64,000 nucleotides of DNA, from assembly GCF_056712565.1 (NCBI RefSeq), contig NZ_CM160072.1, one strand, 5' to 3'. Position numbers: made by a program. The stretch's first letter is position 1. Each line of letters opens with the position of its first letter. This document shows positions 21,501-24,500 of this stretch, in pieces.

Positions 21501-24500
21501 CTGTTCCTGAACAGCTTCCCCCTACGGAAGATAATAAACAGCCTTCTTTTGATGTTCTTGATGATTGGGATGCGCCTTTGCCGTGGGAGACGGAAGAAAC
21601 ACCTGTTTCATCAAGTGAAAAGGTAGCTAATGATAATGAGGAGGATGTGTTAGAGAATTTTGCCTCTCTTATCTGCCGGCAGAAGAATACCAGAACAGCA
21701 GGGGCATCATTTATAGAATTTGCAAATTCACTAGCTTATAGACACGGGCTAAAACGACCAAATGGTATTGAGGCATATTTTTCTAAGCATTACCCAAATG
21801 TATACGAAGACTTTGATATTCCATTTTAATAAGGAGGGTTATGATTCAATATTTAGTAAAAAATCAAGTAGACAGAATTCAGTGTAATGACACAGGAAAA
21901 CGCATCTATGAAACGCTTGCTTTCCTATACAAAGGAAAGCCAACACCGCTAAAATATAGCGATGTGTTACATCGAGCAGGGTGCTCTGAAGATGGTTTAA
22001 AATTCTGGCTGAAACAGCTATCAAACTTCGGTGTTATTGAGATTAAAGAATTATCTTTCTCTACATTCAATCTCAAAAGACTAGATAAAGTAGAATTCAT
22101 CTATTCCACTCTCTAAAATCTCTCTATGTAATTAAAATATAAAAGGAAAACATTATTATGATAGTAGCTATGTATTGGTTATTGTTCTTTCTCACGTTAG
22201 AAACATATTTCGGGGTGTTTTCCTTTAAAAGAAAAGGAAAAATAAATAATGGCAAAAAGAAAAAACAACGTTGTTAAGAAAATCGGGGATTCAGCTTCTC
22301 TTCTAAGTAAACCTAAATCTATTCTAAGACGTAAAGACTTTAAAGAGCTAGTTACGCTCACCAAGCATAATAGCGCCCCTGGCGAATGGAAAACAGAGAT
22401 CATAGAACATTCTCCCTCTGTGCCTTGTGGAGATGAATATATCGCATTACAAGAAATCTTATCTTCAACACCTGGCGTATTCTGGAAACCTAGAAAAAGA
22501 AAAGAGTATATTGTTGATAGCTCTGATTTACGCAAATACCAGATTTTAGGATTTGAAGACTATAACCACTACGTTGGTTATCTCGCCACCAATGGCCTAA
22601 ATAATTTAGTTCCTGAATTCCAAATTTTAGATAATGCTGATTATGGAGACTTTTAATATGAACAAAAACACGTATGACACAATTTACTCACTAATTAATT
22701 ATTATGAGGATGATTACCTCCTGCCTTTAAACCGTGCTGAACTTGATGCATATAAAGAAAATACGCCAGCGGCATTAAATGAGGCGTTTAAACACTGGGA
22801 TTTAGCCCTTTCTGCCTTGGAGCACCTTTTTAAAAGAATAGAGATGCTCTGTAAGCGTGAGAACGCATACCTGACAGCCGATCAGATATGGGAGTTATCA
22901 AACTGGATAGAAGATATTGAATCTGATGTTCGCTATGTGGGAGATGGCCTTATCGAACTCGCTCAACGCTTAGGCGCTATCACAGAAGAATAAAAAAGCA
23001 ACAAAAAAGTTGTAAAATATCTTGACATTCCATCTATTGTATGTTAATATAATTATATGGGGTGATTATTTTTCCTTTATTGGTTCGATATTAAAAATTC
23101 TTCTTGTCGTTAAAGGGGAGTAAAATCTCCGCTCCCCGCTTCTCCTCCTTAAGTAAATACTGTGTCATTATTACCTCTTTCCTTTGTTATGCATACATCT
23201 TGGAGTATGCATAACATAGGGTAATTACATAGGTACAAGTTAATAAAAGGCGGCTTTAAATGCTGCCTTTTATTTTGCCCGTTATGCAACTTAAAAGTTG
23301 TATTTCTTACTTTAAACAAGGTAACAAGGTTTATATAAATGTTGTTCTTAAACGATAAAGAGCAAATCATCAAATATAAAGATGAAATGCTGAAAATTAA
23401 TCCACAAATTACCGAAATGGTAGCTAAATACGCTGGGTGTTCTGTCGAGGAAGTAGAAAGATGTGTTGAAAAATATTTTTCTCCTTCTTCTCCGTCTACA
23501 CCTTCCCTTAATGAATTAATCAAATTAAAAGCTAAGGAGATTACTAAATGATTATTGATTTAGACGCTCTATTTCCAGTCAGAAAGACTTTCATAGATCT
23601 GGTAAGTTATTGTACTGATCCGTTTGCCTCTGTAGAAAACAAGGTTTTTGCTTCTCTTCCTGCTGATGTTGAATGCGGAGACTTGATCACCAGCACTGGC
23701 GCTAAATATGAATCAGGAGATGATATCTATGTTGTTATGAGTGAATTTGTAACGGCTGGAGACAACAAGCCTGTAGATGTTTTACGTAGCAATGCTGGGC
23801 TTGTATGCATCAAAGCTGATGCGCTGAATGCTGTAAGTGAAGCAGCAAAAACAGCATTAATTAAAAAAGGCTTTCAGCTTGAAGGGTTCCACTCTGTTTT
23901 CACTTCTTAATAAAAGGAATAATAATAAATGATTCTAGGTAATGATTACGTTGATTTAGCTCCGCTGTTCTCTGCGCATAGCACTAGAAACTATCTGCTT
24001 TCTACTCTGGATTTTACGGATTCTGTAGGGGTTACATCTCATAAAGTAGCTGTTTCCCAGCTTGTCGAAAGCAACGAATCTCTCTTTAACAAAGAGACAA
24101 GCCGTTTTAGTTCTGAACACAACGTCACTAAGCGAGAACAAGGTAAAGAATGGCTGATTCAAATCCCTTACTTCCTGCGTGAAGATGTGATTAGACCTTC
24201 TGATGTTCAAGGCAAACGTAAACCAGGTACTGATTTCCAGGAAACACTCACTGATATTTATGCTGACTATGTTGCTAAACACCACGTAGCGTATCAGCGT
24301 ACAAAAGAGAGCGTATTGGCTGCTTCTCTGTTTAGTGGTCGCACCTATACCCGGAAAACTGATGATGTTCTTATCGAGTGGGGCAAGCTGTTTAACGTAT
24401 CAGCTATGAAAGCCACTGTGAACGCTTCCAGCACTGACACCACGAAGATTTTTAAAGAATTTGATCAGATTGCTACTGACATTATCGAAAAAGCACAAAG

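Follow-up and report, generated by a model that had tools for sequence, protein, structure and literature searches.

A 64,000-nucleotide (nt) stretch of contig NZ_CM160072.1 (NCBI RefSeq assembly GCF_056712565.1), referred to here as the window, contains a mobile island of Escherichia coli whose replication operon and capsid/tail operon are separated by a gene-free gap of 345 nt. The gap holds a perfect 12-bp inverted repeat, here called the dyad, which is the subject of this analysis. A preliminary description of the sequence had placed the dyad between two operons of a mobile element, a location that is borne out by the gene map, and had offered two explanations for it, an operator for a dimeric regulator or an RNA stem-loop in the leader of the downstream operon. 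The gap is coding on neither strand, since its insertions and deletions (indels) among related copies are not multiples of 3. Along the sequence, the following features were recognized in the gap and at its borders:

22998..23013, + strand: weak hairpin GCAAC-A6-GTTGT, placed where the early operon ends and directly before the leader promoter; on the + strand it is closed by a G·U pair.
23022..23050, + strand: leader promoter, with TTGACA at 23022-23027, a 17-bp spacer and (TGT)TAATAT, the hexamer lying at 23045-23050; predicted start at about 23057.
23057..23276, + strand: predicted terminated non-coding RNA, about 215-220 nt long (about 200 nt where the 17 nt listed below are missing).
23066..23081, + strand: 5' U-rich tract UUAUUUUUCCUUUAUU, holding the first copy of the UUUCCUUU(R)UU motif, as located by the repeat finder.
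23115..23137, + strand: invariant hairpin GGGGAGU / GCUCCCC, with a closing U·G pair that is possible on the + strand only.
23138..23150, + strand: CU-rich tract GCUUCUCCUCCUU, which resembles an anti-Shine-Dalgarno sequence.
23150..23180, + strand: hypervariable linker with many indels of 1-10 nt.
23181..23220, + strand: dyad stem-loop of 15 pairs and one U·U mismatch, with the 12-bp dyad as its core and the loop AUCUUGGA at 23197-23204.
23229..23245, + strand: 17-nt indel ATAGGTACAAGTTAATA between hairpin and terminator, missing in 19 of 52 copies.
23243..23276, + strand: intrinsic terminator, AAUAAAAGGCGGC - UUUAAAU - GCUGCCUUUUAUU, with the U-tract at 23268-23276.
23284..23303, + strand: post-terminator hairpin AUGCAAC-UUAAAA-GUUGUAU in the 5' untranslated region (UTR) of the first late gene.
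23339..23551, + strand: first late gene, encoding 70 amino acids with a helix-turn-helix-like motif, followed by a gene for a 120-amino-acid protein and by the capsid, tape-measure-like and Dit-like genes.

The arms of the dyad are TGTTATGCATAC (23185-23196) and GTATGCATAACA (23205-23216), and the spacer between them is ATCTTGGA (23197-23204). The sequence given in the preliminary description is thus present, but, read directly, the spacer has 8 nt and not 9, and the repeat ends at 23216 and not at 23217. A repeat finder extended the arms to 16 nt (23181-23196 / 23205-23220; 94% complementary, one T·T mismatch), and within each 12-bp arm lies an 8-bp palindrome, TATGCATA, the two being 18 bp apart. 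In first-order Markov simulations of 64 kb (n = 200), the expected number of perfect 12-bp inverted repeats with a 3-12-nt spacer was 0.02 per window on average, and such repeats were seen in 4 of the 200 simulations; the dyad is beyond chance. As RNA, the 46-nt segment that contains it folds with -21.3 kcal/mol (z = -6.7 against shuffles). Within IMG/VR, the whole dyad was found confined to this island family. The only other perfect inverted repeats of at least 12 bp with a short spacer in the window lie at 30895-30929 and 37802-37835, the latter inside an Rfam match to the IS009 small RNA at 37796-37996.

The near-consensus promoter that had been reported upstream of the dyad was recovered as TTGACA-17-TAATAT, with 10 of 12 consensus matches and an upstream TG, and is the best site in the interval 22000-24500. 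A consensus scan, the only method applied here, found no promoter-like site on the + strand between 23051 and 23896. Because there is no other promoter-like site on this strand before the late genes, the dyad lies inside the leader RNA predicted to start at this promoter and to end at the terminator; it occupies about +125 to +164 from the predicted start and precedes the + strand terminator by 25 nt, or by 8 nt in the deletion variants. The predicted leader RNA folds with -67.6 kcal/mol (z = -5.9). No Rfam family was matched by the leader in the window at gathering thresholds, nor by the leaders of locus L001 from the same strain and of four related loci at E <= 5, and a known RNA family was discarded as an identity for the element.

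The terminator-like hairpin downstream of the dyad was likewise upheld. Its GC core (GGCGGC at 23249-23254, GCTGCC at 23262-23267) is extended by A/U pairs and followed by TTTTATTTT at 23268-23276; the fold reaches -17.8 kcal/mol on the + strand as against -13.7 kcal/mol on the - strand, and a conserved U-run follows on the + strand only. A simple terminator scan did not list this terminator at 23243..23276, an omission probably to be put down to the stem extension, which takes up the T-run. Beyond the terminator, the ribosome-binding region of the first late gene consists of a tandem duplication, AACAAGGT AACAAGGT, at 23315-23330; in our reading it is, but for one bulge, complementary to both UUUCCUUU(R)UU motifs of the leader.

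Fifty-two copies of this leader type were gathered from E. coli genomes, IMG/VR and metagenomes with anchors placed outside the dyad, and the 42 distinct sequences among them were aligned. Across 38 loci the gap is on average 95.2% identical to that of the window (flanking genes, 91.3-97.5%). Variation is concentrated in the promoter spacer, in the linker at 23150-23180 and in the 17-nt indel at 23229-23245; little or no change is seen in the promoter hexamers, in the segment 23060-23145, in the dyad, in the terminator or in the 60 nt that lead to the ATG at 23339. The -35 hexamer is unchanged in the 42 variants, and the tract at 23066..23081 is almost so, with A23079G in one of them. The stem of the terminator, including G23252·U23264, is invariant, the one variable position being 23256 in the loop (T/C). 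In the copy of strain MLI104K2, the place of the leader promoter and of all that precedes about 23060 is taken by an IS3-family element; dyad and terminator are intact.

The changes that do occur in the hairpins favour the + strand. The dyad is perfect in 30 of the 52 copies, and 22 carry A23207G, which in the + strand RNA gives a U·G pair in place of U-A; the change leaves the + strand hairpin at -21.3 kcal/mol and weakens that of the - strand to -17.1 kcal/mol. In the outer stem, C23181T likewise gives U·G on the + strand. The left arm is invariant except in one metagenomic copy, and so is the loop in all. The same tendency was found in the other hairpins of the gap (terminator, post-terminator, pre-promoter and 23115-23137), where G·U pairs are held or toggled that would be A·C mismatches on the - strand. 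In the hairpin at 22998..23013 one variant has G-C in place of G·U and U·G in place of C-G, changes that fit a + strand RNA only, and in the post-terminator hairpin G23286·U becomes A-U in 4 variants.

Related islands were sought more widely. A capsid-protein scan of genome contigs gave one close relative, and distant islands were reached through the 120-amino-acid protein; the related loci come from E. coli, Citrobacter, Klebsiella, Kluyvera and metagenomes. Gene order is kept in them, the capsid proteins are 56-71% identical, and a gap of 530-870 nt free of open reading frames (ORFs) lies at the equivalent place. Long leaders occupy these gaps in L013:5098-5788, L015:5097-5785, L018:5087-5782, L021:5150-5788, L022:4634-5161, L067, L068, L070 and L071, and also in L011:4912-5782 and L017:5238-5785; among the carriers there is a second E. 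coli type. The long leaders have a strong promoter at their start and are rich in hairpins, several of which have UUCG or GAAA loops, and with the exception of L022 they contain one or two intrinsic terminators with a U-tract before the first late gene. A promoter of the form TTGAC(A/T)-N16-18-TAnnAT was present at the equivalent place in the other leader types checked. These leaders are mosaic in composition and share blocks with one another; an alignment of nine distinct ones, which does not include the dyad itself, contained 25 compensatory base pairs. A structured leader RNA is therefore a trait of the family, as the gaps of the relatives hold promoter-led, hairpin-rich leaders with compensatory pairs, and the long leaders may constitute a new large structured leader RNA.

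A counterpart of the dyad hairpin was recognized in four of the long leaders. L015, L021, L067 and L068 contain UUUUCCUUUG-13 nt-CAAAGGG at +95 to +155, forming a stem of 6-7 bp with a 13-nt loop, and the corresponding arrangement in the window is UUUCCUUUG-[dyad]-CAUAGGG at +123. To judge by these sequences, the E. coli hairpin looks like that of the relatives with its top expanded into a perfect helix. RNA hairpins evolve with a conserved stem base and a variable top, whereas a dimeric protein on duplex DNA needs a fixed spacing. An inverted pair TGTTA...TAACA also occurs in three independent leader types, with its halves 4, 12 or 22 nt apart (chance occurrence, 2-5% per leader), and always beside or inside a terminator-like hairpin. 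Other parts recur as well: the UUUCCUUU motif is common to the leader of the window and the long leaders, GCUUCUCCUCC, from the CU-rich tract, recurs after a GC-rich hairpin in L017, an unrelated leader of K. pneumoniae, and a hairpin similar to the post-terminator one, GCAGC-AUUUAA-GUUGC, lies at the matching place in L018 and L021. The dyad as such is missing from the other subfamilies.

Placement, the wobble-compatible variation on the + strand and the matching hairpin in related islands thus all favour the second explanation of the preliminary description, the RNA stem-loop. On this evidence we consider it fairly probable that the dyad represents a stem-loop in a terminator-gated leader RNA, transcribed from the + strand, of the late operon. 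Transcription would start at about 23057, at the near-consensus promoter, and pass through several hairpins over about 215 nt, of which the dyad hairpin would be the last and strongest before the terminator. In the resting island, polymerase coming from the leader promoter would stop at 23268-23276, which would release a short, stable RNA (about 200-220 nt) and keep the late genes switched off; any polymerase arriving from the early operon, where a convincing terminator is lacking, would stop there too. Upon mobilization, a factor supplied by a helper phage or by the island itself might let polymerase past the terminator. Late transcription would need such read-through, because the capsid/tail operon has no promoter-like site of its own.

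As to what the hairpin does, stabilizing or shaping the terminated RNA, in the manner of an Hfq-type layout, would rank first among its possible tasks, and serving as a recognition or processing site, for an antiterminator protein or for RNase III, would rank second; it could also do both. The near-perfect 16-bp helix is plausible as an RNase III site or as a protein recognition site. We infer from the arrangement of the parts the production of the RNA, its end at the terminator, the regulated read-through and the contribution of the hairpin to it.

Several observations weigh against this interpretation. The metagenomic copy L041 carries G23186T, which breaks a pair of the dyad, and across the 42 variants there are no two-sided pair changes in the dyad and only 5 additional types of one-sided pair change. 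Formal covariation measures equalled those of shuffled controls and are uninformative, the subfamily being too uniform. The wobble-compatible changes are few events, with counts inflated by the relatedness of the sequences, and by our own estimate (5 of 5 at p = 0.5, with some ascertainment bias) the chance of such strand-biased transitions is a few per cent. Loop and arms are equally invariant, so that conservation alone does not tell an RNA function from a DNA function, and a perfect palindrome with two TATGCATA sub-palindromes could also be the form of a protein site. The homology of the hairpin with that of the relatives rests on a motif of about 12 nt and on position, and apart from this motif the leader of the window has no significant BLAST-level similarity to the other leader types. 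Finally, no antiterminator gene was recognized in the island with Pfam, PHROG and NCBIfam, and a literature search found no transcript data for the leader.

The RNA might instead act mainly in trans, with its U-rich and CU-rich tracts pairing with the Shine-Dalgarno regions of genes of the island or of a helper, and the dyad hairpin would then be merely structural, placed before the terminator. This explanation, which we regard as possible but less than probable, overlaps with a terminator-gated leader and differs from it in the purpose of the RNA. It draws on the layout, in which a conserved unpaired 5' tract is followed by an internal hairpin, then by an A/U-rich linker and by a terminator that ends in a U-tail, on a strong promoter that looks constitutive, and on two complementarities: the leader tract UUAUUUUUCCUUU (23066-23078) matches the ribosome-binding region of the gene for a 135-amino-acid protein perfectly over 13 nt (22233-22245), and the CU-rich UUCUCCUCCU (23140-23149) matches that of the gene for a 55-amino-acid protein, AGGAGGAGAA (20943-20952), over 10 nt. 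The UUUCCUUU motif also occurs in the long leaders. The 13-nt match, however, is perfect in this window only, most relatives having G·U or worse at 22242, and a local hairpin in the 5' UTR of the 135-amino-acid protein gene accounts for the part that is conserved. Moreover, matches of this kind are predicted by purine/pyrimidine composition, and the duplex energies lie within about 2.5 standard deviations of background. No extended complementarity to phage records was found. Conservation in the 60 nt past the terminator equals that of the RNA, which fits a leader that is read through. A motif GGGGTG..TTTTCCTTTA is present both at the start of the leader and in the 5' UTR of the 135-amino-acid protein gene (22212-22228), where the local hairpin sequesters the ribosome-binding site.

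An operator in duplex DNA, at which a dimeric regulator of the island would act as a roadblock or as a looping site at the entry to the late operon, was the other proposal of the preliminary description, and we now hold it to be unlikely. The perfect 12-bp palindrome is far beyond chance, each arm contains an 8-bp palindrome at 18 bp from the other, and both arms and the spacer are conserved; in addition, every subfamily encodes directly downstream the 70-amino-acid protein with a helix-turn-helix-like motif, which, with the 55- and 91-amino-acid proteins, is among the candidate regulators suggested by a reading of the sequences. The site nevertheless lies about 130-160 bp past the start and overlaps no promoter-like site on either strand, and its half-site has no second copy in the island or in the 64-kb window. 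In 22 of the 52 copies its symmetry is lost through a change that only a + strand RNA tolerates without cost. Subfamilies with a homologous 70-amino-acid protein (44-49% identity) are without the dyad. The hairpins of the relatives have 6-7-bp stems and 13-nt loops, and a rigid dimer could not read TGTTA/TAACA halves whose spacing varies between 4, 12 and 22 nt. Typical dimer operators are shorter than a 32-bp site with 12-bp arms. No positive support for the operator was obtained.

A recombination core, serving multimer resolution of the excised island or as a res subsite of the serine resolvase, is very improbable. The 12-bp inverted arms around an 8-bp asymmetric spacer do resemble loxP/FRT (13-8-13) and cer, there is one copy per element, as a resolution site would have, and the island encodes both a resolvase and a tyrosine integrase. 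Nevertheless, L002 and L003 keep the dyad without a resolvase, and L011 has a resolvase of 62% identity and no dyad; as the two do not co-occur, a res site of the serine resolvase was ruled out. Serine-recombinase crossover sites have a 2-bp centre. Copies of the island at tRNA-Thr and at tRNA-Gly, with different integrases, have the dyad in common, and the integration core is a different sequence, the 20-bp direct repeat ACTCCTATTATCGGCACCAT, which also eliminates attP or the integration core as identities of the dyad. Measured against the dif and cer consensus sequences, the arms match a XerC arm at 8 of 11 positions but in reversed orientation, and no XerD arm is present, so that a dif/cer-like XerCD site was discarded.

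Least credible of all is a role on the - strand, as an element for the 25-amino-acid ORF at 23169..23092 or for an antisense RNA: this ORF has an AAGAGG ribosome-binding site and an ATG just downstream of the dyad, and the - strand folds well, but indels that are not triplets shift or shorten its frame in many copies, which rules it out as the regulated item, every wobble pair becomes an A·C mismatch, and no promoter-like site lies nearby, a conserved - strand promoter or T-run at 23229..23245 being precluded by the deletion of this candidate region in 19 of the 52 copies.

Some further candidates were tried and rejected. A replication origin is located elsewhere, the iterons lying at 19115-19530, 4 kb away, and the island contains no GGGCGGCGACCT-like match that would indicate a lambda-type cos site. 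Mimicry of a known phage, or an antisense relation to one, gave chance-level matches only. Pairing of the right arm with a third GTTATGCA copy at 23281-23288 would enclose the terminator and not compete with it, and some variants carry G23286A; nor was any upstream segment seen that is complementary to the 5' arm of the terminator, as an intrinsic antiterminator would have. A type III toxin-antitoxin layout was dismissed for the lack of tandem repeats and for the structural nature of the downstream genes, and a P2/P4 Ogr-type TGT-N12-ACA site for its wrong spacing, the putative downstream -10 also falling inside the 17-nt indel.

Among known systems, the unit formed by lambda PR', 6S RNA and tR', on which Q antitermination acts, offers a close parallel for a terminator-gated leader, as it joins a strong constitutive promoter to a structured non-coding transcript of about 200 nt, an intrinsic terminator, and morphogenetic genes behind the terminator without a promoter of their own. 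Unlike lambda, the leader of the island has no sequence similarity to phage records or late promoters, no gene of the Q family was found in the island, and neither a Q-binding element nor a sigma-dependent pause can be demonstrated, the -10-like GATTAT/TATTAT at about +8 to +13 being only a lead; moreover, the element concerned is an island of 12.7 kb, with neither portal nor terminase genes, and not a phage. The immunity leader of P4 (PLE, CI RNA; C4 RF01695) shares with it a satellite-type context, a constitutive promoter and an untranslated structured leader. In P4, premature termination silences the downstream operon and yields a stable small RNA, to which the leader of the island may be likened. 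In contrast to P4, no C4 match was obtained with Rfam at gathering or permissive thresholds, the gated operon is morphogenetic and not replicative, and no internal complementarity of the seqA/seqC type was established.

The 3' module of Hfq-dependent small RNAs such as SgrS shows the same order of elements as 23181-23276, with conserved unpaired pyrimidine-rich tracts upstream; the likeness is one of predicted layout only, and it differs in that the target matches are weak or not conserved and the sequence past the terminator is equally conserved. Lambda nut boxB and HK022 put are also hairpins in promoter-proximal leaders, ahead of terminators that have to be overcome. However, boxB has a 5-bp stem and a GNRA-like pentaloop and put consists of two hairpins in about 70 nt, whereas the dyad hairpin has a 12-16-bp stem and an 8-nt loop; the boxA-like CGCU(U/C)CUCC strings show a loose resemblance only, and no N-like gene was recognized. 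With loxP, FRT and cer the dyad shares inverted arms of 11-13 bp, an asymmetric spacer of 6-8 bp and one copy per replicon, but it has no co-occurring recombinase, is situated inside a predicted transcribed leader, and corresponds in the relatives to hairpins of a different geometry. On the favoured reading the element is of a kind already known, being a hairpin of a small RNA or of a leader gated by a terminator, and its setting, a family of capsid-encoding islands, seems to be undescribed.

The island is bounded by the 20-bp direct repeat mentioned above, which corresponds to the 3' end of tRNA-Thr and occurs at 16595-16614 and 29340-29359; the tRNA at the insertion site is tRNA-Thr(CGU), and the island spans 12.75 kb. 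E. coli is indicated as the host by this tRNA and by Rfam matches to naRNA4 and IS009, and strain GPEC548 matches the window with 100% identity. The island was found in 306-307 of 5,426 complete E. coli genomes (about 6%), in the chromosome in every case, and carriers include O26:H11, O111, APEC O1 and NC101. It is inserted at more than one tRNA (tRNA-Thr, tRNA-Gly), with differing integrases. Outside the gap, its main features are:

17820-18359: serine resolvase, at the left end of the island.
20611-20639: strong early promoter, TTGACA-17-AATAAT with TG, 11 of 12 matches, of the same design as the leader promoter.
20957-21124: 55-amino-acid protein, ribbon-helix-helix-like by sequence reading.
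21176-21829: O-like replication initiator.
21841-22116: 91-amino-acid protein, winged-helix-like by sequence reading.
23929-24957: E-type major capsid protein.
25263-27092: tape-measure-like protein (phrog_16051, E = 3e-53).
27126-27839: Dit-like tail protein.
27919-29196, - strand: tyrosine integrase, at the island end far from the tRNA.

The recombinase at the left end is interchangeable. The types represented by the window and by L011 have a serine resolvase, which is absent from the copy in O26:H11 11368, and the Citrobacter, Klebsiella and Kluyvera types have a tyrosine recombinase of about 180-220 amino acids. Between 18360 and 20750 lie 2.4 kb without a credible ORF, with iteron-like repeats and AT-rich tracts, the part at 18947-19530 being the most notable. 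The repeat (T/C)ACCCCCACAGAATTCTGTTA occurs there in seven copies of about 25 nt, four of them at 23-24-bp spacing (19436-19530), and further sets of repeats are located at 19197-19286 and 18947-19095. This stretch is probably the origin for the O-like initiator, and all related islands have comparable gene-free gaps of 1.6-2 kb. Like the early promoter, that of the leader looks constitutive. In some strains IS3-family elements are inserted in the island (L003:8701-9957, L004:233-1446), one of which splits the capsid gene (IAL7252). Farther out, two Rfam matches to naRNA4, derived from repetitive extragenic palindromic (REP) sequences, at 837-913 and 1578-1655 lie upstream of proBA, in ordinary E. 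coli chromosome.

No portal, terminase or tail tube protein was recognized among the products of the island. Against 50,697 phage records, the best matches of the capsid protein had at most 26% identity, 15 of 16 being in Pseudomonas phages, and the DNA of the island matched no phage record. The adjacent small proteins gave no useful match in sequence searches of Pfam, PHROGs, NCBIfam and the PDB. A search of the literature found no description of this island type or of the small RNA, and the family seems to be undescribed; in behaviour it resembles a phage satellite.

A bolder proposal is that the leader of the window and the leaders of 530-870 nt in the related Citrobacter, Klebsiella and Kluyvera islands belong to one new family of structured regulatory RNA, which would sense helper infection or a signal from the island, switch termination to read-through and perhaps act in trans as well. 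This family would be absent from Rfam and specific to undescribed, satellite-like islands with capsid and tail genes, with the dyad hairpin, beside the terminator, as one of its conserved modules. We regard this proposal as unlikely.

Taken alone, the dyad is a modest element, one stem-loop of a leader, and its setting is of greater interest than the repeat itself. If it acts as RNA, pairing and not the sequence of a half-site would be what matters at this position. Should the proposed reading of a terminator-gated leader be true, the dyad would mark the point at which the late operon is controlled in a compact mobile island of E. coli and related Enterobacteriaceae.

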